Source: Trichodesmium erythraeum IMS101 (GTDB taxonomy: Bacteria; Cyanobacteriota; Cyanobacteriia; Cyanobacteriales; Microcoleaceae). From it: 32,000 nt of DNA. The notes under the pieces were generated by a model. That model worked only from the letters and a program-made list of their open reading frames with translations. It had not been told where the DNA came from and did not search any database. Of the stretch, positions 9,351-27,769 are shown piece after piece. The position numbers and the translations under genes were made by a program. Position 1 is the stretch's first letter. Each line of letters begins with the position of its first letter. The stretch is taken from positions 330,001-362,000 of the forward strand of contig NC_008312.1 of NCBI RefSeq assembly GCF_000014265.1, given 5' to 3'.

Positions 9351-9380
9351 GAGACATAATTATGTCAGTTATGTCTTTTT
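9351..9380 (+). promoter_or_regulatory. GAGACATAA-N9-TTATGTCT hairpin plus T-run, about 100 nt upstream of the kinase gene
   Basis: The sequence is GAGACATAATTATGTCAGTTATGTCTTTTT, with an 8-bp perfect stem AGACATAA/TTATGTCT. It also contains the perfect palindrome GACATAATTATGTC. The same motif recurs beside both precursor genes. Confidence 0.4.
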
Positions 9381-9479: not shown

Positions 9480-10676
9480 ATGAAGTTTGTCTTAAACTCT
9501 CGAAATGTCTACGACTATTTAGTAGAAAATGGTTTATGTGATTCCCTACAGGAAGGGGAGCCATATCCTTCCCAGAACTCTCAGAGTAATGTTGAGCTAA
9601 TTAGTGCTAAGAATTTTAATTTATTGGTGACTTTGCCAGAGGGTCGAAAGCTTCTGGTTAAACAAGAACAATATAATTCTCAAGGAAAAACCCTTGGTGA
9701 GTTGTTTGGAGAATGGCGAATTCAAAAATTCTTACGGACATTTCCTGAACTTGACCATTGGCGTGTCTTTCTGCCAGAGTTGTTATTTCACGACCCTGAA
9801 AAGTCTATTGTGGTCTCTACTTACCTGGATAATTATCGAGATTTAAGTGATTTCTATTCTAAGGAAAATACTTTCCCTACAAAGGTTGCAGCTCAAATCG
9901 GTAATTTTTTGGGGACTGTTCACCGCGATACTTGGAATAGAGAAAATTATCGAGAGTTTTTTGCTAGTGAAGTTGTTAGTACTAAACCTGCAGTCTCCCC
10001 ACTTTTGGTGGATAGTCTCGAAAGGATAGGACCAGACATTTTTGGTATTGCTCCTGTAGATGGGTTGAGATTTTTTGCTCTTTATCAACGATATGACAGT
10101 TTGGGGAAAGCGATCGCTCAACTTCGCGAGACTTTATCTCCTACTTGTCTGACTCACAATGACCTGAAACTAAATAATATTCTCATGGCTCAAAATTGGG
10201 AAAATTCCGGTGAAAATATTGTGCGGTTAATTGATTGGGAAAGGTCTAGTTGGGGAGACCCTGCTTTTGATTTGGGAACGGCTATCAGCAGCTATCTGCA
10301 ACTTTGGTTGGGTAGTTTGGTTATTAGTAATTCTCTGAGTATAGAAGAATCTCTCAAATTTGCCACCACTCCCCTTGAATTACTTCAACCGTCTATTGCT
10401 GCTTTAGCTAAAGCTTATTTTGACACTTTCCCAGAAATTTTGGCATATCGTCCTGATTTTTTGAGACAAGTAGTACAGTTTGCAGGTTGGGGTTTGATGA
10501 CAGGAATTTTGTCAATGGTTCAATATCAAAAGACTTTTAATAATACGGGTATTGCGATGCTTCAGGTTGCCAAAGCATTATTATGTCGCCCTGACTCATC
10601 AATGTCTACAATTTTTGGTGTTGCTATTGAAGAAGTATTGAGGAGTCAGGAGCCAGGAGTCAGTAGAATGCATTAG
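9480..10676 (+). CDS. APH-fold phosphotransferase/kinase (candidate Ser/Thr-peptide kinase of a LxmK/TvaC-like dehydration pair)
   Basis: 398-aa ORF. It has the catalytic-loop motif HNDLKLNNIL (HxDxxxxN) and the metal-binding IDWERSSWGDPAFDLG, typical of the aminoglycoside/choline-kinase-like phosphotransferase fold. GAGAGG lies 9 nt upstream of the ATG. Confidence 0.75.
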   Translation: MKFVLNSRNVYDYLVENGLCDSLQEGEPYPSQNSQSNVELISAKNFNLLVTLPEGRKLLVKQEQYNSQGKTLGELFGEWRIQKFLRTFPELDHWRVFLPELLFHDPEKSIVVSTYLDNYRDLSDFYSKENTFPTKVAAQIGNFLGTVHRDTWNRENYREFFASEVVSTKPAVSPLLVDSLERIGPDIFGIAPVDGLRFFALYQRYDSLGKAIAQLRETLSPTCLTHNDLKLNNILMAQNWENSGENIVRLIDWERSSWGDPAFDLGTAISSYLQLWLGSLVISNSLSIEESLKFATTPLELLQPSIAALAKAYFDTFPEILAYRPDFLRQVVQFAGWGLMTGILSMVQYQKTFNNTGIAMLQVAKALLCRPDSSMSTIFGVAIEEVLRSQEPGVSRMH

Positions 10677-10838: not shown

Positions 10839-11948
10839 ATGCAATTACTTGAGTTTCCAAGTTATCACTTCCCTACTGGAGTAACTGGGCGATTAAAAGA
10901 AGTTTTATTAGACATTGTTGAGAGGGTAGAAATTTCCTCTGATTTTTCTATTCGTCATCCTGAGTATAAACCTTTAGATTTGCCTGCTGAGGTGGTTGCT
11001 CGTTTTCAGGCATTGCCAAAACAAATGCGGGATAAATATCTGAGTCTACAATTGCGTAGTTTTCTCTATGGTATCTATTATAATGGTTCGATGCAAACTT
11101 CCCTGGCATTGGATAGTGAGGAAAATAGTCGCCCATTAGATTTGGAGAATAATACTTTTCTTGGGGTAGAGATGGAGTTTTATATTCAGTTAGAAGAAAG
11201 TAATAGGGGAGAGGGGTATTTTGATTCTGGTTGGTCGGTGTTGAGGGAGGAAACTGATGGTGCTTTAGCTGTTACTAAGAATGGTTTGCGACTGCATATT
11301 GAACGAGAAAAGCATCTTCAAGAATCTCAGAAAGCTGCTGTTGTGGGGGATTCGGTAGCAATTCGGATGCCTAATAATTTGGTGCAAAATGGTTTCTATA
11401 TGGCGGTTGGTAATTTGGGTAGTCAGAGTCAGGTAGAGTCGGAAAGTCAATCTGGAGTGGTGCGAGTTTATTTTAACTTTACTTCTGAAGGTGCAGTAGT
11501 GGTCATGGGTAGTTTGACAGAGAAATTAAATGAGGTTGCTGTTCCTTTTAGTTTTAAAGTGTTGTATGCTCGTGATTATTATGATCGCTACGATGCTGGG
11601 GTACTCTATTTTGATAAGGATAATTATGAGTTGGTGAGGCAGGTTTTGTCGGATGTTTATGGGGAGAATAAATCTTATTTTAAATCAGAAATACCTTTAT
11701 TTACCATGGAGTTGGCACCGGGTTTGGGATTAGCTGAAGAGCCAGACAGGAAGTTTGCTAGTCAGGAAAGTTTTGGTATGAATAGGTGTCAGATGATAGC
11801 AAATGGATTATTGAAAGCTTGGGACCAGGGGGATAATTCGACTGAAGGAAGAATGAGGGCAATTTTGGAGCAATTTTCTTTATTGGGAATTGATTTGCAG
11901 CGTCCTTATTTGAATGCTAATTCTGAGGATGTTTATAGGGTGATATAG
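10839..11948 (+). CDS. HopA1-family-like protein (candidate phospho-Ser/Thr lyase partner of the kinase)
   Basis: 369-aa ORF directly downstream of the kinase on the same strand. Its size and sequence pattern (IRHPEYKPL, LRSFLYGIYYNG, LVQNGFYMA, GVLYFDK, GLGLAEEP..FGMNRC) match my recollection of cyanobacterial proteins annotated as the T3SS effector HopA1 family. This is not verifiable here. Confidence 0.5.
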   Translation: MQLLEFPSYHFPTGVTGRLKEVLLDIVERVEISSDFSIRHPEYKPLDLPAEVVARFQALPKQMRDKYLSLQLRSFLYGIYYNGSMQTSLALDSEENSRPLDLENNTFLGVEMEFYIQLEESNRGEGYFDSGWSVLREETDGALAVTKNGLRLHIEREKHLQESQKAAVVGDSVAIRMPNNLVQNGFYMAVGNLGSQSQVESESQSGVVRVYFNFTSEGAVVVMGSLTEKLNEVAVPFSFKVLYARDYYDRYDAGVLYFDKDNYELVRQVLSDVYGENKSYFKSEIPLFTMELAPGLGLAEEPDRKFASQESFGMNRCQMIANGLLKAWDQGDNSTEGRMRAILEQFSLLGIDLQRPYLNANSEDVYRVI

Positions 11949-11955
11949 TTTTTTT

Positions 11956-12347
11956 AGGTTGGGTTAAAGGACAGCGCCACCCAACAAGAACTCGTAAAGA
12001 TTAATTTTGAGATCAGGCTAATTATTTGTATGTGTTGGGCTTTGTTCCTCAACCCAACCTACACTATTTTCAATAATTTTTCAGTGGAACTGGGTTGGGT
12101 TAAGGGATAGGAAGTGAACAAAAGGTGGTATTTGTGAAGGTAGCGATCGCCTAAATTAACATGATTAATAGAACCGATGTTTATTAAAGAATAGTCTGGT
12201 GTAGGTGGGGTTAAGGGACAGCGAACCCAACAAAAAGCCTAACTAATGAAAATGGCGATCGCTAGGATCAGACAAAGATACTAAATGGTTCTACATTTTC
12301 TTCTAGTCTGGTGTAGGTTGGCTTAAGCGATCGCGCACACAACAACC
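11956..12347. repeat. cluster of 5 imperfect hairpin repeats (GGTTGGGTTAAGGGACAGCG.ACCCAACA type), one of them inverted
   Basis: Copies were read near 11957, 12041 (inverted), 12092, 12199 and 12311, at roughly 100-nt spacing. Each is internally self-complementary (GTTGGGT...ACCCAAC). This is a common Nostocales intergenic repeat class. Confidence 0.7.
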
Positions 12348-12412
12348 TATATCTGTGGTGTTTGGTTCTGGTGAGCAAACCCACGCCCCAGTTCAATAAT
12401 AATTTTTCAGTT

Positions 12413-12446
12413 CAGCTCCAGCTCAATTATGGGGCTGTTTTTTTTT
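12413..12446 (+). terminator. rho-independent terminator (likely ends the kinase/HopA1 transcript)
   Basis: CAGCTCCA-GCTCAATTA-TGGGGCTG forms an 8-bp stem with one G-U pair, followed by T9. Confidence 0.7.
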
Positions 12447-12486
12447 GACTTTTATTGTGGTTCGATACCATCAGAAAATAAAAAAA

Positions 12487-12511
12487 AGACATAATTGTGT
12501 GAGTTATGTCT
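12487..12511 (-). repeat. AGACATAA-N9-TTATGTCT hairpin, inverted relative to the 9351 copy (T-run on the minus strand)
   Basis: The reverse complement GAGACATAACTCACACAATTATGTCTTTTTTT aligns with 9351-9380. Both stem arms and the T-run are identical; only the loop differs. Confidence 0.45.
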
Positions 12512-12592
12512 CCAATAATTATCTTTTTTGATTTAATTAACTAGCTTTTAGCTAATTTTGAGTTAAAATGGATGATTATTAGTCGTTATTTC

Positions 12593-12620
12593 GAGACATA
12601 ATTGTGTCAATTAGATACAC
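12593..12620 (+). promoter_or_regulatory. half-decayed copy of the GAGACATAATT(A/G)TGTCA motif, about 47 nt upstream of a -35-like TTGCAT (12640-12645)
   Basis: GAGACATAATTGTGTCAATTAGATACAC shares its first 21 nt, apart from 2 mismatches, with 9351-9371. At 9351 the motif lies 46 nt upstream of a -35-like TTGTCA (9397-9402). Confidence 0.3.
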
Positions 12621-12750
12621 TTTGATTTTGTTCAACCCCTTGCATTTATAAGAAAGTTAGGTAATAATATAAGTGGAAAGAGACAAAACCAAGTCTGATT
12701 CCAAATCAACAAAGTTTATCTACTAATTTTACTTAAGGAGTAACTTAAAA

Positions 12751-12924
12751 ATGGCTAACATTAACATCTCTGATTTAAGTCCTGCTGGTGCGGACTTGTT
12801 CTTAGATTCTGAAAGCTACCTCAATGATTTGACTGAGGGAGAAATGACGAATACATTGGGTGGTAAAGGTAGCTTCACCTTTTGTGGTAAACGGATCTCA
12901 TGGAGTATCTGCTGGGGGTACTGA
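12751..12924 (+). CDS. double-glycine-leader peptide precursor A (57 aa; core KGSFTFCGKRISWSICWGY)
   Basis: Hand translation gives MANINISDLSPAGADLFLDSESYLNDLTEGEMTNTLGG|KGSFTFCGKRISWSICWGY*. AAGGAG lies 10 nt upstream. The leader fits the C39 consensus L(-12)xxxE(-8)M(-7)xxTxGG. The leader is conserved with only synonymous changes in the paralog at 13694. The ORF is below the track's size cutoff. Confidence 0.85.
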   Translation: MANINISDLSPAGADLFLDSESYLNDLTEGEMTNTLGGKGSFTFCGKRISWSICWGY

Positions 12925-13356
12925 TCATAAAATTAAGTAAAAAAAAAAGAAGAGAGTGATTTGGTGATTATTCCATCTTAGTATAAGTGAGAACTATGTC
13001 AACAATTCTTTCCTACCTTTTCTGACAGTTGATTTACTGTGACTAATTGACTAACTAATCTTGCTAGTTCCTCACTTTTGGTTACCTGGCACCATAGGCA
13101 CAGCTAAAAAACTGACCATCACTAATAAAAGGAAAATACCTCTTAAAAGTTTGCTACTTTAGTAATACTTTCTTGAGGTATTTTCTGTGCCTTATGTTGA
13201 CGACAAGACAAAAAAGCTGGAGGATTAGAATTTGTAGGTTGCAGGTTATCATTGTAGAGGTGTAGGTTAGGCGATCGCGCACACAACAACCTATATCTGT
13301 GGTGTTTGGTTCTGGTGAGCAAACCCACGCCCCAGTTCAATAATAATTTTTCAGTT

Positions 13357-13390
13357 CAGCTCCAGCTCAATTATGGGGCTGTTTTTTTTT
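13357..13390 (+). terminator. rho-independent terminator (duplicate of 12413-12446)
   Basis: The identical CAGCTCCA-GCTCAATTA-TGGGGCTG stem-loop is followed by T9. Confidence 0.7.
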
Positions 13391-13693
13391 GACTTTTATT
13401 GTGGTTCGATACCATCAGAAAATCAAAAAAGACATAATTGTGTGAGTTATGTCTCCAATAATTATCTTTTTTGATTTAATTAACTAGCTTTTAGCTAATT
13501 TCGAGTTAAAATGGATGATTATCAGTCGTTATTTTGAGACATAATTGTGTCAATTAGATACACTTTGATTTTGTTCAACCCCTTGCATTTATAAGAAAGT
13601 TAGGCAATAATATAAGTGGAAAGAGACAAAACCAAGTCTGATTCCAAATCAACAAAGTTTATCTACTAATTTTACTTAAGGAGTAACTTAAAA

Positions 13694-13852
13694 ATGGCTA
13701 ACATTAACATCTCTGATTTAAGTCCTGCTGGTGCTGACTTGTTCTTAGATTCTGAAAGCTATCTCAACGATTTGACTGAGGGAGAAATGACGAATACATT
13801 AGGAGGATCGAGGTGGTGGAACAGATTAAAAGATTGGTTTCGTACACGTTAA
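13694..13852 (+). CDS. double-glycine-leader peptide precursor B (52 aa; core SRWWNRLKDWFRTR)
   Basis: Hand translation gives MANINISDLSPAGADLFLDSESYLNDLTEGEMTNTLGG|SRWWNRLKDWFRTR*. It has the same AAGGAG SD as gene A. Six nucleotide differences from the gene A leader were counted, all synonymous third-position changes. Confidence 0.85.
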   Translation: MANINISDLSPAGADLFLDSESYLNDLTEGEMTNTLGGSRWWNRLKDWFRTR

Positions 13853-14300
13853 GCAGCACTAAGTACTTTTACGTGAGTCCTGATTAAATCTTAGTATAGG
13901 TTCAGAACTGTGTCAACAATTCTTTCCTACCTTTTCGACAGTTTCTTTGCTGTGACTAATTGACTAACTAATCTTGCTAGTTCCTCATTTTTGGTTACCA
14001 GGCACCATAGGCACAGCTAAAAAACTGACCATCACTAATAAAAGGAAAATACCTCTTAAAAGCTTGCTAGTTTAGTAATACTTTTTTGAGGCATTTTCTG
14101 TGCTTTATGTTGACTACAAGACTGCGTGACTCAACCCAAGCTACCCCATAAAAAGATATGACCCAGTGGAAAATGTGATGCTCAACTGGGTGATATTTGG
14201 CATTGACATCGGTTGGACTGAGGAGTAGAAAGCAGTAGTGTTGAGGGCGACAAGATCAGATGATGACGCCACCCCAAACCCTATAACTACTCCAATGAGA

Positions 14301-15062
14301 CTATGCAGCAATAAGTTTACTATTTAAATCTAAATCAATTAAAACTTCAACCGACTCAACTTGCTTCTTAAGCCACTCATCAAACAACTCCGCAAAAATC
14401 TGAGAGCGCAACTTATTATCTAACTCTGCTGAAATAATTTCCTCCACAAAAATCAAATGTACCCCCTTAGAAGTCACAATAGGTTTAATCATCTGGGGAG
14501 GTTTAGCCGCAAAAACAGCCGCAGAAATCTCTGGTTTCAAATCCTTACGATACAACACCCCTCGATATCCCCCCTGACGACGTAACTCTATATCTTCAAT
14601 GTATTCATGAGCCACATCATAGAAACTTGTTTCCCCTTCCTGAATAGCATAGAATAATTCCATCCCTAAATCTTGATCATCCAAAACCACCTCATACATC
14701 ACCACACCAGCATAATTCAATTGATTTTCATAAAAATATGGCTCAACTTTATCTGCAAACAGATGAGCCACCAATTTTTGAGCAACAACACTTATATAGA
14801 CAACTTCCTCAAAATCATCAATAGATAGACAAAACTTTTCTAACCAAGCAAAAGTGTCTTGGGCGCTATGAAGTTTATTTACAAACCTCATAGTATCTGC
14901 CGCTTTCTGCAGTTCTTCAGTCTCCACTTTTATACCCGCTTCCTTCGCTGCATTCAGAATAATCTCGCGAGTAATAATCTCTTCTTTCAGCTCAGAAGTT
15001 TTTAAAGATAACTTAATGTGCTTCAAAATATCTTCAGCAGTAATAATAATAGATTGTAACAT
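14301..15062 (-). CDS. parvulin/PpiC-type peptidyl-prolyl isomerase-like protein with no signal peptide
   Basis: 253-aa ORF. The C-terminal part (GGYRGVLYRKDLKPEISAAVFAAKPPQMIKPIVTSKGVHLIFVEE) resembles the PpiC rotamase core (GG.LG.f.rg.m.p.f..a.f....G....pv.t..G.H.i.v). The N-terminal part is helical and SurA-N-like. It is the last gene of the exporter operon. Confidence 0.65.
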   Translation of the reverse strand: MLQSIIITAEDILKHIKLSLKTSELKEEIITREIILNAAKEAGIKVETEELQKAADTMRFVNKLHSAQDTFAWLEKFCLSIDDFEEVVYISVVAQKLVAHLFADKVEPYFYENQLNYAGVVMYEVVLDDQDLGMELFYAIQEGETSFYDVAHEYIEDIELRRQGGYRGVLYRKDLKPEISAAVFAAKPPQMIKPIVTSKGVHLIFVEEIISAELDNKLRSQIFAELFDEWLKKQVESVEVLIDLDLNSKLIAA

Positions 15063-15346: not shown

Positions 15347-17230
15347 CTACAACTCTAAACCTCCTTTTTGTAACTTCTTAAACGGGTCAAGAATAAAATC
15401 AATCAAAGGACGCTGACGCACAACAACCTCAGCCGTTGCCGTATCCCCCGGACGCAAAACAACACACTCATTAGCAGTAGGAATACAATACTCATCCAAC
15501 TCAACCTTTAACTCATAAATAGCCACATTTCCCTCAGCAGTTTCCTGCATTTTTGAAGTAGGAGAAATCTCTTTCAACCATCCCCCAACTACACCATAAT
15601 CCTGAAAAGGATAGGCATCAAACTTCATTTTTACCTCCATTCCTTCCCTTAACGAACCACTTTCTGTAGTTGCCATATCCGCCTTTAATAAAAGACTCGT
15701 TTCCCTAGGAGCTATCTCCACTATCATCTCTCCTTGTTGCACAACATCTCCCACACCTTTGATGGGGAAATTAAAAATAGTACCTCCCTGTTGCGCCCTA
15801 ACTACTCGTTGCTCTAACTGAAAATTTAAAGAATCAATCTCTTTATTTGTCTGAGCAATTTCTCCTTGAATACTAACAATTTGACTATCCATACTCTGAA
15901 GTTGCTCTTGTATTTTTGATATAGCAATTTTCCCAGAATGAGTAATAGTTTTAGAGCTATTTTCTTGCTCATTCAAACGTAATTCAGCCTGCTTAATATC
16001 TGCCTTAACTTGATTAATTACCATTTCATAACTACTCTTTTGTTCTGCCAAACGTAACTCAGCTTGCTCAATATCTGCCTCCCCTTGATTAATAATTCTT
16101 TCATAACTACCTTTTTGCTCTGCCAAACGTAATTCAGCTTGCTTAATATCTGCCTTTCCTTGATGAATAACCCTCTTATAACTACCCTCTTGCTCTTCTA
16201 TTCGTAATTTAGCTTGCTCAATATCTGCTTGACTTTGCTCCAACATTCTTTGTCTTTCTCGCCCAATATTTTCATGCTCAACTAATTGTATTTCCGTCAC
16301 CACACCCTGGTCCCAAAGACCACGATAACGTTCTACTTCTTTCATAGCCTTTTCCCAGCGAATTTCTGATAATTGATAAGCAATTTGACTATCTTTTAAT
16401 TGTCGTTTTGCTTGATTGAATTGAGCCATTTTTTCTTCTTTCTGTAAACTCAACGCTCTCTTAAGAGCTCCCAAATTTTCTTCTGCTTGATAAACTTGTA
16501 CTAATTTTTCTTCCCTTTGTAAATTTAATGTTCTTCTGAGAGCCGCCAAATTTTGTTCTGCTTGATGAACTTGGGTCAGTTTTTCTTGTTCCTGTAAATT
16601 GTACATTGTTTTAAGAGATTGTGCGTTTTGTCGTGCTTGCCCCACTTGAGCTAATTTTTCTAATTTTTGAGATTCATTTTGTCGTTCTTGGGTACGAAGT
16701 TCAATTTCCAATTGATTTTTTTGTTGTTGAATCTTACTAAGTCGATTTTTCTGATTTTGCAGTTGAATTTGGAGTTGAGCAAGTCGGTCATGAATAGGGC
16801 GAGATTCTAATTCTATTAAAATATCTCCAGCCTTAATTTTATCCCCTTGTTTAACATAAACTTTCTCAACTTTTGCCGTTTGTGTATATGCGGTAAACGT
16901 TAAATTTAGCTCTTGTTTAAAAGTACCACCTTGAGGTTCTAAACGTCCTCTAGCTGAACCAGTTTCATCTACTTGAGAAAACATTCCCCAAGGGAGAGCG
17001 ATCGCTACAAATCCTATTAAAAGATATAGTAATCCTCGTGTCCAACGTTGTGGTAAAGCATCTAATAATTCTTTAGTAGCAAAAGACCAATCATCAACAG
17101 ATTCATCTAACTTTGTAACTGCTGTTTCTTGATAGTTAGAATTCTTCAAACTTTTTTCTAATGTTACTAAGTCAACCTCTAAAGGTTTATGACCATTTGA
17201 CTCTAAAGTTAAGTTCAATTCTTGTGGCAT
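15347..17230 (-). CDS. HlyD-family periplasmic adaptor (membrane fusion protein) with an expanded coiled coil
   Basis: 627-aa ORF with an N-terminal TM segment (GLLYLLIGFVAIALPWGMF). A lipoyl-like segment VYVKQGDKIKAGDILIELES pairs with the C-terminal GGTIFNFPIKGVGDVVQQGEMIVEIAP. The central coiled coil is long and Q/E/K-rich. Confidence 0.9.
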   Translation of the reverse strand: MPQELNLTLESNGHKPLEVDLVTLEKSLKNSNYQETAVTKLDESVDDWSFATKELLDALPQRWTRGLLYLLIGFVAIALPWGMFSQVDETGSARGRLEPQGGTFKQELNLTFTAYTQTAKVEKVYVKQGDKIKAGDILIELESRPIHDRLAQLQIQLQNQKNRLSKIQQQKNQLEIELRTQERQNESQKLEKLAQVGQARQNAQSLKTMYNLQEQEKLTQVHQAEQNLAALRRTLNLQREEKLVQVYQAEENLGALKRALSLQKEEKMAQFNQAKRQLKDSQIAYQLSEIRWEKAMKEVERYRGLWDQGVVTEIQLVEHENIGRERQRMLEQSQADIEQAKLRIEEQEGSYKRVIHQGKADIKQAELRLAEQKGSYERIINQGEADIEQAELRLAEQKSSYEMVINQVKADIKQAELRLNEQENSSKTITHSGKIAISKIQEQLQSMDSQIVSIQGEIAQTNKEIDSLNFQLEQRVVRAQQGGTIFNFPIKGVGDVVQQGEMIVEIAPRETSLLLKADMATTESGSLREGMEVKMKFDAYPFQDYGVVGGWLKEISPTSKMQETAEGNVAIYELKVELDEYCIPTANECVVLRPGDTATAEVVVRQRPLIDFILDPFKKLQKGGLEL

Positions 17231-17560: not shown

Positions 17561-20287
17561 CTACCCAACATCTAACTGTTGACGATTCAAATAATAATAA
17601 TGTCCCCGTTTCGCCATCAACTCTTCATGATTTCCCTGCTCAATTAATACCCCCCGATCCAACACTAAAATTAGATCAGCATTTCTCACAGTAGATAAAC
17701 GGTGAGCAATAATTAACGAAGTGCGACCCTGGAGAATAGTATTCAAATTCCTCTGAATAATTCGCTCCGACTCAACATCCAGATGAGAAGTAGCCTCATC
17801 AAAAACCAAAAAACAGGGTTTTCCTAACAAAGCACGAGCGATCGCTAATCTTTGCCGTTGACCACCAGACAACAAACCCCCACCTTCCCCTATCTGAGTT
17901 TCATAACCCATCGGCAACCGTTGAATAAACTCATCAGCACCAGCTAACCTAGCAGCATCCACAATATCTTCAAGAGTTGCAGAAGGACAAGCCATAGTCA
18001 AATTTTCCCGAATAGTGCCACCAAATAAAAAAGTATCCTGATCAACCACACCCACTTTATTCCGCAGGGATGGCAACGAAATCGCCGTGATATCGTAACC
18101 ATCAATCAAAATTTTCCCATCAGTAGGCGGATACAACCCCAAAACCAACTTAGAAATTGTTGTCTTCCCAGACCCAGAGCGCCCCACCAAAGCCACAGTT
18201 TGTCCAGCTTTCACCTCAAAACTCAGATTTTCCAAAACATTAATATCGCTTTCTGGGTGGTAACGGAAAGTCACATTATCAAAAATAATATTACCCCGTA
18301 GCTCCGTCAAATACTGACGTGCCTGAGATTGTAAATCTTCCTCAGGCTCAGTATCAATCACATCATTAATACGCTCCATGGCAATAACCACCTCCTGTAA
18401 CTGATTCCACAAAACCGTCAGTCGCTGAAAAGGGCTAATCACATTACCTATCAACATATTAAAAGCCACCAACTGCCCAATAGTTAACTCTCCCTGAATA
18501 ACCAACCAAGCTCCAAACCATAGTAACCCCGTCGTTACTAAAGATTCAATAGTTAAGCTAAACATTTGCAGTCGGTTACCCATCACCTGTCCAGAAAAGT
18601 TTTTTCTGATTGACTTATTCAGAAGTTCCTCCCACCGCCAGCGTACTGTTTGCTCAACTGCCAGAGATTTCACAGTATTTACACCAGTCAAAGATTGAAT
18701 CAGATAACTACTTTCTTCAGCTAGAGCGGCAAATATTTCTCTAGAGATTTTTTGGAGAAAGGGTGTAGCAATAAGTGCTAATAAAAAAAACGGTGGCACA
18801 ATAACCAATGCTAGCAAAGCCATCTTCCAGCTATACCAGAACATTAGCCCTACATAAACAAATACCGTCAGCAAATCTAAGACAATAGAAAGAGCTTCTC
18901 CAGTTAAGAAATTCTCAATTTTCCGGTTTTCTTGAACCCGAGCAATAATATCCCCCACATAACGAGACTCAAAAAAACTCATGGGTAGTCGGAATGTGTG
19001 GCGAATAAACCCAACGATCATGGCTATATGTACTCTATTAGCCGTGTGATCAAGGAGATATTGTCGCAAACCCGTCATAGCCACCTGAAATAAGCCAAAG
19101 AGCACTAAACCTAATCCCACTGCTGTTAGAGTTAGAGTGCTACCTTGAACAACTACCCGGTCTAGTAGTAGTTGGGTAAATAGAGGGGTAATAAGTCCAA
19201 ATATTTGAATTACTAGAGAAGTGATAAATACTTCCAATAGAACTTGTCCATGAGGACTGACCAACTCAAAAAATTGCCAGAAAGGAGTAGTGGTATCTTT
19301 AAGTTTTTTGATTAATGCAGTAGGTTGTAGGAGTAAAGTATAGCCAGTCCAACCAGCTTTAAATTCTGGATAAGTAAGATGGCGTTGACCAATAGCGGGG
19401 TCAGCGATGATCACCTGTTTATGGGTGACCTCATAGACTACCACATAATGTTTACCTTCCCAGTGAGCGATCGCTGGTAATTTTTGTTTAGCTAATTGAT
19501 CAAGACTTGCCTTAACTGGTCTGGTAGAATATCCAATGCTTTCTGCAGCAGCAGATAATCCTCGAAGTGAAGCACCGTTACGGTCTACATTAGCAATATC
19601 GCGCACCCTATTCACGCTGAAATTTTTGCCCCAGTAACGAGCAACCATGACTAAACAAGCCGCACCACAGTCAGAACCGCTTTGTTGGGCAAAGAATGGA
19701 TAGCGTCTGGTAATACGCTGCCAGAGATGACCTACTCTTTGGGTGGGACTAGGGAAATAGGCTTTGTTAATAGCTTTTTGTCCTATAACCTCTGGTTGCT
19801 CATATTCAGTCCTGTTAAATTCTGGCAGATTTTTACCCAAAGAATTGGGAATTTCTGGCTCCGCTTTTTTCTGTAGAGCATTAAGTTTGAGAGCAACTTG
19901 GTAAAGATGTTCTCGAATTTGAGGATGTTTTTTAATTAGTGGGAGTAGAGCTTCTCGAGAGAGATAGGAAAGTTTGAGATTTACTGATGCTCTAGCAGAG
20001 TAGGATAAAAAAGAGTTATCTGGAAATAGGGTAGATTCCCCAAATGAAGCTCCAGCAACAAGGGTAGTCATTAATTCACCCTCAGTATCTAAGAGTCTAA
20101 CTTTGCCTTTGGTGATTATATATATGCCGGTTTGAGCATCTGCTGTTTGCCAAAATTGACCGACTTTGGGCGTTAAATTTTCCATATTTTTCAAGCAACT
20201 TTCTATTTCCTGCTGTGAAAGTTGATATCCTAAGACATCACTAAGCTGCTCTTGAGTTAAACTTGGAGTGGATGCAGTTTTAACCAT
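17561..20287 (-). CDS. cyclic-nucleotide-binding domain / C39 peptidase / ABC transporter (bacteriocin-type, HetC-like exporter)
   Basis: 908-aa ORF.
- cNMP-binding signatures: FGESTLF and SARASV.
- C39 catalytic Cys context QQSGSDCGAACLVMV, and His in AIAHWEGKHYVVVYEV.
- TMD.
- Walker A GRSGSGKTT, signature LSGGQRQRLAIARAL, Walker B LVFDEATSHLD. Confidence 0.92.
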   Translation of the reverse strand: MVKTASTPSLTQEQLSDVLGYQLSQQEIESCLKNMENLTPKVGQFWQTADAQTGIYIITKGKVRLLDTEGELMTTLVAGASFGESTLFPDNSFLSYSARASVNLKLSYLSREALLPLIKKHPQIREHLYQVALKLNALQKKAEPEIPNSLGKNLPEFNRTEYEQPEVIGQKAINKAYFPSPTQRVGHLWQRITRRYPFFAQQSGSDCGAACLVMVARYWGKNFSVNRVRDIANVDRNGASLRGLSAAAESIGYSTRPVKASLDQLAKQKLPAIAHWEGKHYVVVYEVTHKQVIIADPAIGQRHLTYPEFKAGWTGYTLLLQPTALIKKLKDTTTPFWQFFELVSPHGQVLLEVFITSLVIQIFGLITPLFTQLLLDRVVVQGSTLTLTAVGLGLVLFGLFQVAMTGLRQYLLDHTANRVHIAMIVGFIRHTFRLPMSFFESRYVGDIIARVQENRKIENFLTGEALSIVLDLLTVFVYVGLMFWYSWKMALLALVIVPPFFLLALIATPFLQKISREIFAALAEESSYLIQSLTGVNTVKSLAVEQTVRWRWEELLNKSIRKNFSGQVMGNRLQMFSLTIESLVTTGLLWFGAWLVIQGELTIGQLVAFNMLIGNVISPFQRLTVLWNQLQEVVIAMERINDVIDTEPEEDLQSQARQYLTELRGNIIFDNVTFRYHPESDINVLENLSFEVKAGQTVALVGRSGSGKTTISKLVLGLYPPTDGKILIDGYDITAISLPSLRNKVGVVDQDTFLFGGTIRENLTMACPSATLEDIVDAARLAGADEFIQRLPMGYETQIGEGGGLLSGGQRQRLAIARALLGKPCFLVFDEATSHLDVESERIIQRNLNTILQGRTSLIIAHRLSTVRNADLILVLDRGVLIEQGNHEELMAKRGHYYYLNRQQLDVG

Positions 20288-20400: not shown

Positions 20401-21063
20401 TTAAATAACTAAAGTGTTGAAAGTTAACGTTTCCAAATCAGAGTTAACATTTTGCTCTGAGGTCAGGTCGCGAATTGCAATGTTTTTTCTCTTGGCATTT
20501 TGACTAATAGTTTCATCAGTTTGAGCTGATAATGTTTTAGTAGATAATCCCATCTTTTTGATTAAACGGTTAATATGGCGATCGCTAAATTCTACCCCAA
20601 ATTCTTTAGCTAAATGTTTCCCTAAGCAATTAGCAGTCCACCGCTCAAATGCATAACCACATTTCTTAGGACTATTAGTTAATAACTCTTTCAACCGCTC
20701 TAAATATTGTTCATTAACTTCTTGAGGACGACCTATAGGGTGATTCTTCCATTGTTGAGCTTGACCAGACTGAGCAATAAATATCCAGTATCTAGCTGTA
20801 GCTAGAGAACAACCTATAGCCTCACGGATCTGGGTCTGGGTTTTGCCTTCATCTGCTAGAAGCATGATTTCTATTCTCTGGCGATATTGCCTGGTCAACT
20901 TCTTATCTAGACTTTTTTCTAACAATTTACGCTGAAAAGACGTCAAGCAGCTGCCGTGTAAACTTGACTCATTCATTGTGATTTTGGATTTTGAGTGATT
21001 GTATAACATAGGTTTATAATTATTTTTTGACACTCCAGTTTTTCTCACAGAGATATTTCTCAA
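20401..21063 (-). CDS. stand-alone HTH protein resembling the N-terminal DNA-binding half of IS630-type transposases (possible locus regulator); start codon uncertain
   Basis: 220-aa ORF. It reads LLADEGKTQTQIREAIGCSLATARYWI ... GRPQEVNEQYLERLKELL ... YAFERWTANCLGKHLAKEFGVEFSDRHINRLIKKMGLS, a homeodomain-like plus winged-helix pattern. No DDE half follows; the ABC gene starts 113 nt downstream. An alternative start MNESS lies at about 20976. Confidence 0.6.
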   Translation of the reverse strand: MRNISVRKTGVSKNNYKPMLYNHSKSKITMNESSLHGSCLTSFQRKLLEKSLDKKLTRQYRQRIEIMLLADEGKTQTQIREAIGCSLATARYWIFIAQSGQAQQWKNHPIGRPQEVNEQYLERLKELLTNSPKKCGYAFERWTANCLGKHLAKEFGVEFSDRHINRLIKKMGLSTKTLSAQTDETISQNAKRKNIAIRDLTSEQNVNSDLETLTFNTLVI

Positions 21064-22377: not shown

Positions 22378-23694
22378 ATGAATAAAGAAATATTTGAATA
22401 TATTTATTCCTCTCAATTAACAAAGAATGACGAAAAAACACTAAAGTTATTATTTGCTAATAAGCAACGTAAAGAAATTGCTAAAGCCCTCAAGTGTGTA
22501 GAGACAAATGTTAGTCACAAATTCAAAGCGATCGCTAAAAAATTCAACTATTTAGAATCTAATCAGAATTGTAAAGCAACAGAATACTTAGTTAAGATAT
22601 TTAGCCAATATAAACCTGATATGGTTGATCAACAACTAATTAAATCTTATGCTTCTTATCCAATTTTAATGCCAGATAAACCTGAAGAACCAGACTCCCC
22701 TTTTTATATAGAACGTCATCAGATTCCACGTCGTTCTGTTGAATCTCAATGCTACGAGACTATAGAAAGACCAGGTTCTTTAATCAGAATAAAAGCACCC
22801 AAAAAAATGGGTAAAACTTCTCTGATCAATCAGATACAAGCCAAAGCAAATGACAATAATTATATTTCTCAGTATCTGAGATTCGATCTTTTGATTGAGC
22901 CCCCAAATATCAGTAGTGTTAATAATTTTATTAAAGCATTTAATAAAATCATCAAAAGTCGGTTCCCAGATGTTTCAAAAGGCTCTAATTGGGATAATAA
23001 TAATGCTAAAATTTCTTGTACTAAAGATTTAAAATCACTATTGCTGAATTTACAGAAAAACTTAGTTTTAATATTAGATGAAGTGGATGAAATTTTCCAA
23101 TATCCAGAAATAACTAAAGATTTTTGTGGGATGTTAAGACATTGGTATGAAGAAAGTAATAATGTCAAAATTTGGAAAAATTTACGAATAGTAATTGCTT
23201 ATTCTACAGAATATCATGGCAAATTAGATATTTATCAATCTCCTTTTAATGTAGGCAGCTCAATAGAATTAAAGGAGTTTACAAAAGAAGAAGTAACTCG
23301 ATTAATATTCTTATACCAACTTGACCCCAAAATAGTGACTGATTTAATGTCTATGGTAGGAGGGCATCCTTATTTAATTAGGTTAGCTTTATATAGAATG
23401 TCTCAGGAAGAATTGACAATTGAAAAATTCTTAAAAGAAGCCCCCACTGATAGTGGAATTTATCGAGACCATTTCAGCAGACATTTAGAAACTATAGACA
23501 AAAGGTCAAAAATTAAAACAGTTTTTCAAGAAATATTAAAAGCTAATGAACCAGTCAGTTTTTCTGATAAAAATAGAGAGGTACGTCAGCTAGAAGCTAT
23601 GGGATTAATTAAAATTGAAGGTAATAAGGCTAAAACTGGTTGTCAGTTATATCAAAAATATTTTGGAGAGTTTTTATTAGGCATTAGGTTTTAG
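22378..23694 (+). CDS. LuxR/sigma70-region-4-like HTH fused to an AAA-like (AAA_35-type) NTPase domain
   Basis: 438-aa ORF.
- N-terminal LTKNDEKTLKLLFANKQRKEIAKALKCVETNVSHKFKAIAKKF resembles a LuxR-type HTH.
- Walker A APKKMGKTS and Walker B LVLILDEVDE.
- SPFNVGSSIELKEFTKEEV and GGHPYLIRLAL are typical of cyanobacterial AAA-like domain proteins. Confidence 0.65.
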   Translation: MNKEIFEYIYSSQLTKNDEKTLKLLFANKQRKEIAKALKCVETNVSHKFKAIAKKFNYLESNQNCKATEYLVKIFSQYKPDMVDQQLIKSYASYPILMPDKPEEPDSPFYIERHQIPRRSVESQCYETIERPGSLIRIKAPKKMGKTSLINQIQAKANDNNYISQYLRFDLLIEPPNISSVNNFIKAFNKIIKSRFPDVSKGSNWDNNNAKISCTKDLKSLLLNLQKNLVLILDEVDEIFQYPEITKDFCGMLRHWYEESNNVKIWKNLRIVIAYSTEYHGKLDIYQSPFNVGSSIELKEFTKEEVTRLIFLYQLDPKIVTDLMSMVGGHPYLIRLALYRMSQEELTIEKFLKEAPTDSGIYRDHFSRHLETIDKRSKIKTVFQEILKANEPVSFSDKNREVRQLEAMGLIKIEGNKAKTGCQLYQKYFGEFLLGIRF

Positions 23695-23935
23695 GTTTTA
23701 GGTATTAAGCGTTAGATTTAAAAATTAACAAACTTTACTCTTTTTTATTTTGACTGAATTTGTTCCATTAAACCATGTAGAATAATGCAAATTTATTGAC
23801 ATTTATTTAATAGGTTTTAGGTATTATTTATTAGGCGTTATATTTAAAAATCAACAAACGTAACTATTTTTTATTTTGACTGATTTGTTCCATTTAACGA
23901 TGTAGAATTATGCCAAATTATTCAAAGTTTTTTTA
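23693..23935. repeat. two units of about 120 bp in tandem, plus a partial third (about 23940-23985), in the intergenic region
   Basis: Both units start TAGGTTTTAGGTATTA and share ..TATTTAAAAATCAACAAAC..TTTTTTATTTTGACTGA.TTTGTTCCATT.AAC.ATGTAGAAT.ATGC. Read by eye. Confidence 0.75.
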
Positions 23936-24085
23936 AGACGACTTTGATTTAAGGTATCAGATTTAAAGTTAACAAATTGATAATGTATTCTTACTACCAA
24001 AATCATCATTTTGGTCTGTCGTTTTAATAATTCTTGAATTCCATAAGACCCCGTCCTTAAGAAGGGAGCTAAAATTATTTCTGTT

Positions 24086-24117
24086 AACCTGAAACCTGAA
24101 ACCTGAAACCTGAAACC
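24086..24117. repeat. heptanucleotide tandem repeat (AACCTGA)x4.5, STRR-like
   Basis: AACCTGAAACCTGAAACCTGAAACCTGAAACC lies about 130 nt upstream of the ATG at 24244. A related inverted heptamer, AGGTTTTAGGTTTTAGGTATT, sits at 23686-23706 over the stop of the upstream gene. Confidence 0.85.
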
Positions 24118-24243
24118 AACTAAAACTTAACATCTGAATTAGTGCTAATGGTTAGATATTAACCCTTCAACTCCCAAGGAACTTCAGATCAGTAAAACCT
24201 TGCTGGGAGGCGAGGACATCAAATATTTATTAATGAAATTATT

Positions 24244-26607
24244 ATGTATCATGATACTGGAGGAAGCTTATCAGCAGACGACCCGACTTATGTAGAAAGG
24301 AAACAAGATAGAGAACTATTGGAAAAACTCCTAAAAGGAGAATATTGTTATGTGTTTAATGCTCGTCAAATGGGTAAGTCTAGTTTGCGGGTAAAAGTTA
24401 TAGATAGATTAACACATCAATTAAGTTCCCAAGGTTGCCAATGCATCTCAATTGATATGAGTATGTTGTCTGATTTTTCGATACCAAAAGAATCTTGGTA
24501 TGATGGTTTTTTAATTGAGCTATTAGATAGATGTGACTTAGAAAATAGTAGCAATTATCAAGACTGGATAGCTACTCATCGAAACTTAAAAATTAATAAT
24601 CCTCAGCGTTGCAAACTGTTTATTGAAGAAATTTTATTTATTAATTTTCCTACTCAGAAAATATATATTTTTCTTGATGAAATTGATACATTGGGAAAAT
24701 CTTATTTTAAACAAGAATTTTTAGGTTTTATTCGGTCTTGTTATAATCGCCGTGCTGAGGATAAAAATTCTGATTATCATCGATTAGTTTTTGTTTTTTT
24801 TGGTGCAGTTACTCCAGGAGATTTAATTCGAGATATAAGACAGACTCCTTTTAATATTGGCTATGGAATTGAGTTAACTGAATTAAGTTTTTTAGAAACC
24901 AAGAAAAAATTAATTCAGGGATTAGAAGAATTTGTAGAAAAGCCAGATATTGTGTTAAAAAAAGTTTTTGATTGGACTGGAGGCCAACCTTTTTTAACTC
25001 AAAAAAGTTGTCAAATTATTGTTGATTATGCTGATACTACTCAAGTAGATGTTGATAGTTTGCTAGAAAAAAATATTGTCAAAGATTGGGAAGATAAAGA
25101 TAATCCTATTCATTTAAAACATATACGGGATTATTTACTTAGTGACATTGAATTACTGAGACTATATCAAAAGGTTCTTAAGAAGGGAGAAGTTAAATTT
25201 AATAATAGTAAAGTACAGATGTCTTTAAAGTTATCAGGTATAGTTCTAAAAAAACAAGATAAATTAGTTGTTTTTAATAAGATTTATCAGAAAGTTTTTA
25301 ATCCAGATTGGGTTGAGGAACAGTTAGCAAACTTAGAAAATAATCTGGATTTACCTAAACTTAAAAGATTAAGTTCAAGTTGGGTTATTGTTAGTTTAGT
25401 ATGGGTATTAGCCATTATTATGAGAGCTTTAGGTTGGCTCCAACCATTTGAGTTAAATGAGTTTGATCGCTTAATGCAATGGCGACCCAAAGAAAAACGA
25501 GACCCTAATATTTTAATTGTTGAAGCTACACAAACAGACATTAAAAAATATGGTAAAGGTGGGACTTTAAAAGATAAGATATTGGCTGATGTAATAAAAA
25601 AAATAAATACTTTACAACCGGCAATTATTGGTTTAGATTTGTGGCGGGAGAAAGCTTTAGGTTCTGAGGCTGATTATCAAAATTTATTGACTCTTTTGGA
25701 AAATAATCAGAAAATAATTGCTGTTTGTAGTACCAGTGAAAATAGCCCAAATAAATCTGGTACAAGACCTCCTGAAGGAGTGCCAAAAGAACGTTTAGGT
25801 TTTACTGATGTAGTTCTTGATAATGGTCAAGTTGACATTGTCCGTCGCCACTTAATGTTTATGGGTTTAGAAGAGAAAGATCCTTGTAAAACACAGTATT
25901 CATTGAGTACTATAGTGGCCTTAGATTTTTTGGAAATTAAAGGAGTTAAAGCCAAAAATATTTCCTCGGAGAGTATTAGAATTGGTAATGTTACTTTCAG
26001 GAAACTGAGAAAAGGAAATGGTATTTATGAAAAACTTGACGATGGTGGATTTCAAATTTTACTTAACTATAGAAATTCTCATCATATAGATAATAGAGTA
26101 GCTCAAAAAATTAGTATTTCGGAAGTTTTGGATGGGAACATTAATGATTCTTTAGTTAAGGATAAAATTGTCATTATTGGCATTACAGACCGTACTTCTG
26201 GTGACAAGTTTTATACTCCTTATAGTAATGTTCAGCCTCCTAATCAAAAGCAAATGCCTGGTGTTATTATACACGCACACAAGGTCAGTCAAATTATTAG
26301 TGCAGTTTTATATGGCAGACCTTTGATTATTTTTTGGAGTTGGTGGGTAGAATGGCTATGGATTTTTGCTTGGTCTTTTTTGAGTTATGTGATCGGACAT
26401 TTTTTTCGAGGTTTTTTATTTTTCTTATTTGTAGGAGGAAATATTATTGTTTTATATTCGGTTAGTTTGTTTTTTCTAGTTCAAGGTTTTGTAGTTCCAT
26501 TAGTACCATCTATTTTGGTCTTAATTGTGAATACTGTCATTATTTTCGTTGATGATTCTCACTTTTTTAAGACCAGGAAGCTCCCAGGACCGGTAGAAGA
26601 GGAATAG
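24244..26607 (+). CDS. AAA-like (AAA_35-type) NTPase fused to a membrane-anchored CHASE2 sensor domain
   Basis: 787-aa ORF.
- Walker A NARQMGKSS, Walker B IYIFLDEIDT, FNIGYGIELTELS and GGQPFLTQ are paralogous to 22378-23694.
- A TM segment at aa ~379-399 is followed by CHASE2-like LQPFELNEFDRLMQWRP, ILIVEATQTDI and PGVIIHAHKVSQII.
- Three C-terminal TM helices follow (aa ~695-770).
- No kinase, cyclase or protease output domain is present. Confidence 0.7.
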   Translation: MYHDTGGSLSADDPTYVERKQDRELLEKLLKGEYCYVFNARQMGKSSLRVKVIDRLTHQLSSQGCQCISIDMSMLSDFSIPKESWYDGFLIELLDRCDLENSSNYQDWIATHRNLKINNPQRCKLFIEEILFINFPTQKIYIFLDEIDTLGKSYFKQEFLGFIRSCYNRRAEDKNSDYHRLVFVFFGAVTPGDLIRDIRQTPFNIGYGIELTELSFLETKKKLIQGLEEFVEKPDIVLKKVFDWTGGQPFLTQKSCQIIVDYADTTQVDVDSLLEKNIVKDWEDKDNPIHLKHIRDYLLSDIELLRLYQKVLKKGEVKFNNSKVQMSLKLSGIVLKKQDKLVVFNKIYQKVFNPDWVEEQLANLENNLDLPKLKRLSSSWVIVSLVWVLAIIMRALGWLQPFELNEFDRLMQWRPKEKRDPNILIVEATQTDIKKYGKGGTLKDKILADVIKKINTLQPAIIGLDLWREKALGSEADYQNLLTLLENNQKIIAVCSTSENSPNKSGTRPPEGVPKERLGFTDVVLDNGQVDIVRRHLMFMGLEEKDPCKTQYSLSTIVALDFLEIKGVKAKNISSESIRIGNVTFRKLRKGNGIYEKLDDGGFQILLNYRNSHHIDNRVAQKISISEVLDGNINDSLVKDKIVIIGITDRTSGDKFYTPYSNVQPPNQKQMPGVIIHAHKVSQIISAVLYGRPLIIFWSWWVEWLWIFAWSFLSYVIGHFFRGFLFFLFVGGNIIVLYSVSLFFLVQGFVVPLVPSILVLIVNTVIIFVDDSHFFKTRKLPGPVEEE

Positions 26608-26893
26608 GGAGAAAGAAAAGAGTATAATAACTAAGTTCAAATACTTTAAGTCTTCAAAAAAATGTATTTAGAGAATACATTTTTTCTCCCACAAAAGCCT
26701 ATTAAATACTTATACATAATATGCTTATTTTGTCAAGCTTTATTTTCATAAAAAATATTTGTAAAGCATAGCTTGGAAAGAGGGAAGTTAGATGAAGACA
26801 TTTTATTTATCCAGGCCATTTTGGTAAATTAAATTCTTCCATCTATTGAACAAATTGGTATTACAAAAAGTTTTTTTTGAGGGATAAAATTCT

Positions 26894-27769
26894 ATGAAAT
26901 ATAAACAAGTTATTATTTGTGCTTTGGGATTATTGGTAGGAATGACTCAACTAGTTTGGGGGGAATTTCAAAACCCACAAACAAGTAGACCAGGGAACAA
27001 ACGAGATCGGGGGAATCACATGACAGAAAGTAGACCAGAGCAGAGGAAAAAGAAGCCACCAGTTAATATGCCAATAAAGCATAAACCGTTTGAAAGCCCA
27101 CCAATAAGTAGACCAGGGAACAGAGGAGATGCGGGGCATCAGGCGATAGAACCTCATGGAGATGGACGGACTAGAGGTCCTAATAATCCTGCTGAATTAT
27201 GTCTTCAAATGGAAAAGCCTCTTTTGGCTCTCATTCCTCAAAGCAACTTCGGATACACTTTAGCAAGTCATCCGACTTTTTGGTTATATCTTCCTGGCTA
27301 TAACAACTCTATTAATTTCACTTTGAAGGATGAAGATACTGGAAAGGAAATTTATCAAACTAAGTTTAATGTTGAATCTGAACGGGGAATTATTAGTTTG
27401 AAGTTACCTTCTGCTGCACCGCGTTTACAGGTAGGAAAAGAATATCGTTGGCAATTTGTTTTTAACTGTAGAAATGAGTCCAAGAATTTATCTGTTGAAG
27501 CAGTGGTTGCGCGGAAGGCAACTACCGAGAGTTTGACTAGTCAGTTGAGCTCGGCTACAACTGTGATGGAAATGATAGATATTTATGGGAAAAATGGTTT
27601 GTGGCATGAGACTATTACGACATTAGGAAACTTGCGCCGGAGTTATCCTAATAATGTAGCGATCGCCACTAGATGGAATAGTTTATTGGAGCAAGATGGT
27701 ATCCGTTTTCCAGACTATGATTTGACTAAGACCGAGATTCAAAATTGTTGTAATGTTTCCGATCAGTAG
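26894..27769 (+). CDS. secreted DUF928-family protein
   Basis: 291-aa ORF with a signal-peptide-like N-terminus (VIICALGLLVGMTQLVWG). A basic Gly/Pro/Arg-rich segment ends in GDGRTRG. PLLALIPQSNFGYTLASHPTFWLYLPG and YRWQFVFNC resemble the DUF928 core as I recall it. GAGGGA SD upstream. Confidence 0.6.
   Translation: MKYKQVIICALGLLVGMTQLVWGEFQNPQTSRPGNKRDRGNHMTESRPEQRKKKPPVNMPIKHKPFESPPISRPGNRGDAGHQAIEPHGDGRTRGPNNPAELCLQMEKPLLALIPQSNFGYTLASHPTFWLYLPGYNNSINFTLKDEDTGKEIYQTKFNVESERGIISLKLPSAAPRLQVGKEYRWQFVFNCRNESKNLSVEAVVARKATTESLTSQLSSATTVMEMIDIYGKNGLWHETITTLGNLRRSYPNNVAIATRWNSLLEQDGIRFPDYDLTKTEIQNCCNVSDQ

Follow-up and report, generated by a model that had tools for sequence, protein, structure and literature searches.

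Double-glycine precursor genes beside LanK-like and LanY-like genes in Trichodesmium erythraeum IMS101: probable precursors of modified peptides

The prochlorosins of marine picocyanobacteria (ProcA/ProcM) have many hypervariable cores behind one conserved Gly-Gly leader, all served by a single set of enzymes and a C39 exporter; their leader is of the Nif11 type and their enzyme, LanM, belongs to class II. In class V lanthipeptides (lexapeptide, LxmA/K/Y/X; cacaoidin, CaoA/K/Y; pristinin; rosins), a stand-alone kinase resembling aminoglycoside phosphotransferases (APH) and a HopA1-like lyase are encoded beside short precursors in which Ser, Thr and Cys abound. The lanthionine (Lan) ring of rosins is reported to form without a cyclase, by a substrate-controlled addition helped by RosK-RosY (PMC12291118), and short cyanobacterial open reading frames (ORFs) with Cys and Ser/Thr beside LanK and LanY have been described as putative, uncharacterised "type-B" LanA (Liang et al., 2022; PMC9486802). 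Here we analyse a locus of Trichodesmium erythraeum IMS101 that shares the kinase and lyase of the class V systems and carries two precursor genes, named A1 and A2 below. The window, i.e., the whole stretch of 32,000 nucleotides (nt) that was analysed, corresponds to CP000393:330001-362000, and all coordinates are given within it unless an accession is stated.

A1 and A2 are already known: both appeared in 2011, as precursors without annotation, within a group II bacteriocin cluster. In Wang, Fewer and Sivonen (2011; PMC3140520), Table S3 lists CDS11 (group II, NHLP, CP000393 342751-342924, 57 amino acids (aa), forward), which is A1, and CDS12 (group II, NHLP, 343694-343852, 52 aa), which is A2; these coordinates differ from ours by a constant offset of 330,000, and the label NHLP (nitrile-hydratase-like leader) was given to both by a BLASTP criterion of E < 0.1. 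The locus is one of the group II clusters, with the long C39 ATP-binding cassette (ABC) transporter, HlyD, the SurA-like rotamase, extra modification genes and Gly-Gly precursors all present; the main text of 2011 mentions neither a kinase, nor a phosphotransferase, nor HopA1 (PMC3140520). The contribution beyond that work is that a large uncurated leader family is tied to class V-type dehydration enzymes in cyanobacteria, which we regard as a moderately interesting lead.

Precursors, putative modification enzymes and exporter

The reading that we prefer, and consider likely from the sequence of the locus and its relatives, is that A1 and A2 are genuine precursor genes whose products would be dehydrated under leader guidance by the kinase-lyase pair, cleaved by the C39 domain after Gly38 and secreted. 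Both ORFs, which the first-pass annotation had proposed as encoding 57 and 52 aa with an identical leader of 38 aa, are indeed present at 12751-12924 (A1) and 13694-13852 (A2; RefSeq WP_196797185.1), on the forward strand and with an ATG start. Their residues 1-38 are the same, MANINISDLSPAGADLFLDSESYLNDLTEGEMTNTLGG, with Gly-Gly at the end. The leader and core of A1 extend over 12751-12864 and 12865-12921 (core KGSFTFCGKRISWSICWGY), those of A2 over 13694-13807 and 13808-13849 (core SRWWNRLKDWFRTR). The AAGGAG Shine-Dalgarno sequences, said to be rightly spaced, were found at 12735-12740 and 13678-13683 on the forward strand, in each case 10 nt 5' of the ATG. The A1 core holds four Ser/Thr and two Cys arranged as two SxxxC motifs, SFTFC at residues 3-7 (Ser3-Cys7) and SWSIC at residues 12-16 (Ser12-Cys16). 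The A2 core is rich in Trp and Arg, with three Trp, a net charge of about +3.5, two Ser/Thr (Ser1 and Thr13) and no Cys; a close environmental relative of it reads SRWWTTWRRLFR. A tblastn search for further precursor copies in the window returned A1 and A2 only. The exact 57-aa product of A1 had no match among about 15 billion collected proteins, and A1 is the one of the two genes that still has no entry in public protein collections.

A gene at 9480-10676 (forward strand) encodes a LanK-like Ser/Thr kinase of 398 aa with an aminoglycoside-phosphotransferase fold (Pfam APH; NCBIfam LxmK NF038156, E 1.4e-28) that keeps the motifs HNDLKLNN (226-233) and IDWE (251-254). At 10839-11948, on the same strand, lies the gene of a LanY-like phospho-Ser/Thr lyase of the HopA1 family, 369 aa in length (Pfam HopA1 PF17914, E 7.8e-61). 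In the LxmKY lexapeptide dehydratase complex (PDB 9DK1), the kinase matches chain A (LxmK) and the lyase chain B (LxmY, E 1.9e-7). The catalytic residues of the lyase are conserved as well, a further likeness to the class V systems: when aligned via LxmY, its Arg209, Lys240, Arg250 and Tyr257 correspond to Arg187, Lys219, Arg229 and Tyr236 of CaoY, which mutagenesis or comparison with SpvC has implicated in catalysis. Because these LanK-like and LanY-like genes adjoin A1 and A2, the latter are probable precursors of modified peptides and not simple bacteriocins.

The exporter is encoded at 17561-20287 on the reverse strand. This protein of 908 aa comprises a cyclic-nucleotide (cNMP)-binding domain (49-120), a Peptidase_C39 domain (195-322), a transmembrane region and an ABC ATPase; the part coding for the C39 domain occupies 19322-19705 on the same strand (Pfam Peptidase_C39, E 1.5e-40). 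Its Cys206 stands in the same D-C-G-A-A-C-L motif as the catalytic Cys of PCAT1, where the Cys-less domain of HlyB has a Tyr, and the motifs H-[YF]-V-V (KHYVVV) and A-D-P (ADPAIG), in which we take the catalytic His and Asp to sit, match PCAT1 too. Counted back from Gly38, the leader presents Leu24 (-15), Leu27 (-12), Glu31 (-8), Met32 (-7) and Gly37/Gly38 (-2/-1), while Thr35 at -4 is not hydrophobic and makes an exception to the double-glycine pattern. The resemblance to a C39 recognition pattern that had been pointed out thus holds, Leu -12, Glu -8, Met -7 and Gly-Gly all being there next to a 908-aa protein with intact C39 motifs. Because the leader pattern fits and the C39 domain is intact, cleavage after Gly38 and secretion of the peptides by this exporter are predicted and strongly suggested.

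According to the proposed mechanism, each gene would yield a peptide in which a short variable core follows the double-glycine leader of 38 aa. The leader would offer the core to the kinase and the lyase, Ser and Thr being phosphorylated and the phosphate then eliminated to produce dehydroalanine and dehydrobutyrine. We infer that the pair dehydrates both Ser and Thr from homology to LxmK/LxmY and CaoK/CaoY, from the conserved catalytic residues, from gene order and from the ring motif. The SxxxC motifs of A1 would then become two lanthionine rings. As no cyclase gene was found in the window, ring closure would be controlled by the substrate or assisted by the kinase-lyase pair, as in rosins; that A1 forms its two rings without a dedicated cyclase is speculative. 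A2, which has no Cys, would be left as a linear cationic peptide rich in Trp and Arg, in which Ser1 and Thr13 may or may not be dehydrated. Finally, the 908-aa C39 ABC exporter and HlyD would cut after Gly38 and secrete the product.

The leader belongs to a large family. A word-indexed search retrieved 174 relatives, mainly from marine metagenomes and also from Trichodesmium and Okeania genomes, in which the leader is near-invariant and more than 95 distinct cores occur among 120 representatives. A profile search of 1.84 billion representatives gave 1152 proteins at E <= 0.001; the best 150 of these matches are 48-98 aa long and were nearly all matched at the N-terminus. In the alignment of 24 leaders that served as query for the locus search, Gly -2 is invariant and Gly -1 is conserved in at least 90% of the members. 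With one genome per species and neighbours taken within 10 kb, we recovered 22 leader loci (referred to by L numbers where needed) in Okeania, Trichodesmium, Nodularia, Nostoc, Calothrix, Dolichospermum, Chamaesiphon, Hydrococcus, Scytonema and other cyanobacteria. Kinase and lyase homologues lie within this distance in 18 of the 22 loci, and one more locus ends inside the lyase gene. The PpiC-like protein, HlyD and the exporter are also found in most of them, and the number of precursor copies ranges from 1 to 11 per locus. Taken together, precursors, kinase, lyase, PpiC-like protein, HlyD and exporter form a syntenic set in 18-19 of the 22 loci, with Okeania, Trichodesmium, Nodularia, Nostoc, Calothrix, Dolichospermum, Chamaesiphon and Scytonema represented.

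The main rival to this reading is that some or all members of the family, A2 in particular, are exported unmodified. A1 and A2 would then be double-glycine peptides of the class II bacteriocin-like or signalling kind which the exporter just cleaves and secretes, the kinase and the lyase acting elsewhere or on A1 alone. Several observations lend weight to this possibility or weigh against our preferred reading. A2 and 58 of the 165 unique cores lack Cys (the 58 do have Ser/Thr), A2 resembles a classical cationic Trp/Arg-rich antimicrobial peptide, and some cores of the family are rich in Gly. In two loci (L001 and L011), the same leader family occurs with no kinase or lyase gene within 10 kb, so that export may be the main task of the leader; in the group I clusters of Wang et al., which have no modification genes, one finds the PpiC-like protein, HlyD and the long exporter as well (PMC3140520). 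The kinase scores 100 bits against the cut-off of 315 bits of LxmK NF038156, i.e., below the family score. Furthermore, LanC, a second APH-like protein (LanX) and LanD (flavin Cys decarboxylase) were not found among the Pfam-scanned ORFs of more than 100 aa in the 32-kb window, nor in the smallest syntenic gene set, that of Nodularia (L005).

We nevertheless regard export without modification as unlikely, since the kinase and lyase genes are syntenic with the precursors in 18-19 of the 22 loci and across many genera, and since (S/T)xxxC is strongly enriched in the cores. Ser or Thr is present in 160 of the 165 unique cores, and Cys in 103. The motif [ST]xxxC occurs 140 times in these cores when 31 occurrences are expected from per-core shuffling (z = 21.7), a statistic that is inflated by kinship among cores although the orientation-specific signal is still very large. 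The spacing [ST]xxC is mildly enriched and the reverse order C...[ST] is depleted, so that the enrichment concerns one orientation only. A similar box precedes the kinase gene and the precursors (see below), which also speaks against this rival.

Some members of the family differ from A1 and A2 in their cores or in their neighbours. In Chamaesiphon (L014, L015, L018, L022) and in Nostocales (L008, L016-L021), the same leader is carried by very different long cores, some with Gly-rich repeats of 90-145 aa and others of a conserved "FGVKYLEYLVDGYAIASIK" type without Cys; the precursors with these long cores all adjoin kinase and lyase genes. In Nostoc sp. PA-18-2419 (L006, 6458-8313), an aldo-keto-reductase-like gene and a second PpiC-like gene are located between the lyase gene and five precursors, and we speculate that the reductase might reduce dehydro-residues. 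A second PpiC-like copy is also present in L007, L009, L012 and L013.

Selection on the leader and tandem duplication

The selection argument of the first-pass annotation rested on six differences between the two leaders, all described as synonymous third-position changes. Our recount over the 114 nt compared gives exactly six and no nonsynonymous change: 12792 (GCG/GCT), 12819 (TAC/TAT), 12825 (AAT/AAC), 12858 (TTG/TTA), 12861 (GGT/GGA) and 12864 (GGT/GGA). They comprise three transitions and three transversions, all silent and all at third codon positions. Silent changes make up about 21-31% of the possible single changes in the leader, and the probability that six random substitutions are all silent is 8e-5 at kappa 1 and up to 1e-3 at kappa 8. 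Divergence at silent sites between the A1 and A2 leaders amounts to 6/23.7 sites, i.e., 0.25. The absence of any amino-acid change despite this substantial silent divergence strengthens the original argument.

Comparison with other genomes points in the same direction. Among eight leaders, from the window and four Trichodesmium/Okeania loci, the silent divergence (pS) is about 0.09-0.35 and the nonsynonymous divergence (pN) about 0-0.10. The silent divergence of the window leaders from the Okeania copies is about 0.25, equal to the value between A1 and A2, and the A2 leader is nearer at silent sites to the Okeania-like copy of L002 (0.086) than to A1. For reference, the identity of the kinase and lyase genes at four-fold degenerate sites is 97% with a second Trichodesmium genome (L003) and 82-84% with L002. 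Close in-frame relatives of both the A1 and the A2 core occur in environmental Trichodesmium. In the environmental orthologues of A1, the core differs by 5 nt in three codons, with every one of these amino acids changed, and Ser3, Cys7, Ser12 and Cys16 are retained. With all six changes silent, a pN far below pS in the family and a large leader family, the claims that both genes are translated and that their leader is selected can be maintained, and we hold them with high confidence on these sequence comparisons.

The two genes lie in a tandem duplication of about 900 nt. Unit 1 (12310-13209) comprises a terminator-like hairpin, the putative 5' regulatory module, A1 and a conserved 3' flank, and unit 2 (13259-14122) contains A2; the overall identity between the units is 89%, with a very uneven distribution of the differences. 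The 428 non-coding nt upstream differ by five substitutions and one indel (1.2% divergence) and the first 41 nt of the leader by none, so that the 469 nt at the 5' end are near-identical. In leader codons 14-38, six of 73 nt (8%) differ, each of them silently. No alignment of the cores is possible, and about 190 nt of 3' flank diverge by about 7% (93% identical). The silent divergence of the leader exceeds that of the upstream stretch (5/428) with a Fisher P of 5e-6, or of 2e-7 if only codons 14-38 are considered.

This pattern raises the question whether the identical leaders could have arisen without selection, from a recent tandem duplication or from gene conversion, one or both ORFs being possibly non-functional. 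The ~900-nt repeat, the upstream 428 nt that are about 99% identical and the identity of the first 41 nt of the leader speak for such an origin, and identity within these 41 nt is indeed uninformative on selection; because the duplicated units have diverged unevenly, concerted evolution and not selection accounts for some of the identity between the leaders. We nonetheless consider it highly improbable as an account of the whole leader. Codons 14-38 differ at 8% of their nucleotides, and the probability that all six of these changes are silent is about 7e-5 to 6e-4 for this part alone. The silent divergence of 0.25 is at the between-genus level and above the 3% neutral divergence from the second Trichodesmium genome, and both cores have close in-frame environmental relatives.

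The uneven divergence of the units fits gene conversion or an exchange of core segments. Since the leaders show high silent divergence and the upstream region a low one, the two leader alleles are old, and either the 5' part of the unit has been homogenised in the IMS101 genome or the 3' part of one copy was replaced after a recent duplication. Of the six sites, three (12792, 12819 and 12825) show A2-type bases in an environmental orthologue of A1 (L025, 439-612), a sign that leader alleles have recombined. The pair has probably evolved with the leader protein sequence held constant, the cores replaced and the 5' module homogenised within the genome.

Two further elements were noticed in the units. 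An imperfect hairpin lies in the conserved 3' flank at 13132-13185 (19-nt arms, 84% complementary, no T-run; unit 2 copy within 13932-14122) and may be a 3' stabilising stem and not an intrinsic terminator. Just 3' of each precursor, promoter-like TTGACA-N16/17-TAAGAT sites on the minus strand (13002-12975 and 13916-13888) face back over the precursors. They are kept in both units and might serve for antisense transcription; promoter-like sites as a whole are no more numerous in this region than shuffling would lead one to expect.

Leaders of the NHLP family are much longer than 38 aa. That A1 and A2 are NHLP precursors handled by the typical machinery of that family, as the label on CDS11 and CDS12 in Table S3 of Wang et al. 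(2011) might suggest, is very hard to believe, since the leader here has just 38 aa and neither peptide matched the models of NHLP (TIGR03793), Nif11 or class II bacteriocin leaders, or any other NCBIfam or Pfam model, at an E limit of 10 (HMMER filters discard most matches above E ~0.1). The label of 2011 is thus not supported by any profile match for A1 or A2.

Putative regulatory module and neighbouring genes

Both units start with a shared 5' module. A terminator-like hairpin followed by T9 (12419-12446 in unit 1, 13363-13390 in unit 2, forward strand) precedes the Box 1 palindrome AGACATAA-N9-TTATGTCT (12487-12511, unit 2 copy at 13430-13454, forward strand), which is near-invariant in 12 module copies from 5 loci, and a second half-box (12594-12607, unit 2 copy at 13537-13550). 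The sequence AGACATAATTGTGT has seven matches in the window with at most two mismatches when 0.37 are expected; each unit has two copies, the first being part of the Box 1 palindrome. A related palindromic box, AGACATAATTATGTCAGTTATGTCT, is located at 9352-9376 (forward strand), about 105 nt upstream of the kinase gene. The box found upstream of the kinase gene and of both precursors may be a shared operator.

A candidate promoter, TTGCAT-N17-AATAAT (12640-12672, forward strand), was chosen by eye; its TTGCA core and AATAAT stretch are invariant in the 12 aligned module copies. A consensus promoter scan returned fewer sites than in shuffled sequence and none at this block, so that the promoter assignment should be taken as putative. 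Rfam gave chance-level matches only over 11900-14350 and thus no known RNA family, and the main text of the Trichodesmium primary-transcriptome paper mentions neither the locus nor bacteriocins.

The same 5' module stands directly before other types of Gly-Gly precursors and an RTX-like gene in Okeania and Trichodesmium loci. Its identity is 98.6% within the IMS101 genome and 82-86% between genera. We considered the latter value as a sign of constraint and rejected it, because between the same genomes the kinase and lyase genes show 82-84% identity at four-fold degenerate sites, so that the module identity is close to neutral. A function of the module is thus suggested only by its invariant blocks and by its reuse before other precursor types.

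The loci of Okeania and of the second Trichodesmium genome (L001, 1961-4362 and 5203-6026; L003, 6660-8998; L004) contain further Gly-Gly precursor families at the same place. One has a Nif11-like leader with Trp/Pro-rich cores and lies beside a radical-SAM enzyme, and another is of the "MEKVKMANIQIKELNSEL...EVLGG" type; several of these extra genes come after the same 5' module as A1 and A2. In the window, a hairpin-like repeat of about 42 nt is present in three copies between the lyase gene and unit 1 (11945-11986, 12192-12233 and 12304-12345), the third of which contains the cyanobacterial palindrome GCGATCGC.

Downstream of the units, the genes are on the reverse strand. A PpiC/SurA-like protein of 253 aa with a parvulin domain is encoded at 14301-15062 (Pfam Rotamase; TIGR04500, "putative peptide maturation system protein", E 3e-20, below cut-off). 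It has no evident signal peptide, shows weak parvulin-domain matches to SurA and PrsA and is syntenic in nearly all loci, which makes its gene a conserved accessory of clusters of this kind. The HlyD-family membrane-fusion protein (periplasmic adaptor) of 627 aa is encoded at 15347-17230. Its gene holds 75-nt (25-aa) tandem repeats in the coiled-coil region (15938-16237), and Okeania homologues align over 682 residues against 627 here, which suggests a variable number of repeats. Directly beside the exporter gene lies a fragment of an IS630-family transposase (20401-21063, 220 aa) with the helix-turn-helix part only. The genes at 22378-27769 make up a block of their own that seems to have no relation to the peptide cluster; they are a DUF928 gene and two genes with an AAA_35 domain, which in one of them is fused to a CHASE2 sensor domain.

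Comparison with known systems

In the literature searched, we found no characterised member of the leader family and no characterised cyanobacterial kinase-lyase peptide. Judged by their description, the "type-B" LanA of Liang et al. (2022) are probably the leader family of A1 and A2. On a broader scale, we tentatively propose that cyanobacteria, including Trichodesmium, Okeania and many others, run a minimal, cyclase-free kinase-lyase system of class V type with a C39 exporter, in which one conserved double-glycine leader would serve a large, rapidly changing range of products, both small bicyclic (S/T)xxxC lanthipeptides and linear dehydrated cationic peptides, the cores being renewed by recombination between leader and 3' flank and a shared upstream operator coupling the expression of the enzymes to that of several types of precursor; we see this as possible, with the chances slightly against it. 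If the chemistry holds, Trichodesmium would secrete small peptides with lanthionine rings and others rich in Trp and Arg, which could shape the microbiome of its colonies, and the locus would offer a case of lanthionine rings made with no dedicated cyclase.

Compared with the described class V lanthipeptides, the locus differs in several respects. It lacks both the LanX/LanD pair of class Va and the LanC of class Vb, its leader is a double-glycine leader for a C39 exporter, and its host is a cyanobacterium and not an actinomycete. It also has more than one precursor, the cores being hypervariable and in some cases devoid of Cys, and a kinase that falls under the LxmK cut-off.

With the double-glycine peptides and their exporters (PCAT1, ComA, LahT), the locus shares Gly-Gly at -2/-1, Glu at -8, hydrophobic residues at -7, -12 and -15 and the C39 motifs, these last being shared with PCAT1. 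Unlike them, the exporter has an additional N-terminal cyclic-nucleotide-binding domain, and the leader has Thr at -4. Finally, the locus resembles the prochlorosins in that a marine cyanobacterium places one conserved Gly-Gly leader before hypervariable cores, with a single enzyme set and a C39 exporter, and differs from them in a leader family that has no curated model and in enzymes of class V type; if the broader proposal is true, this system would stand as the class V equivalent of the prochlorosins, in a nitrogen fixer of global importance.

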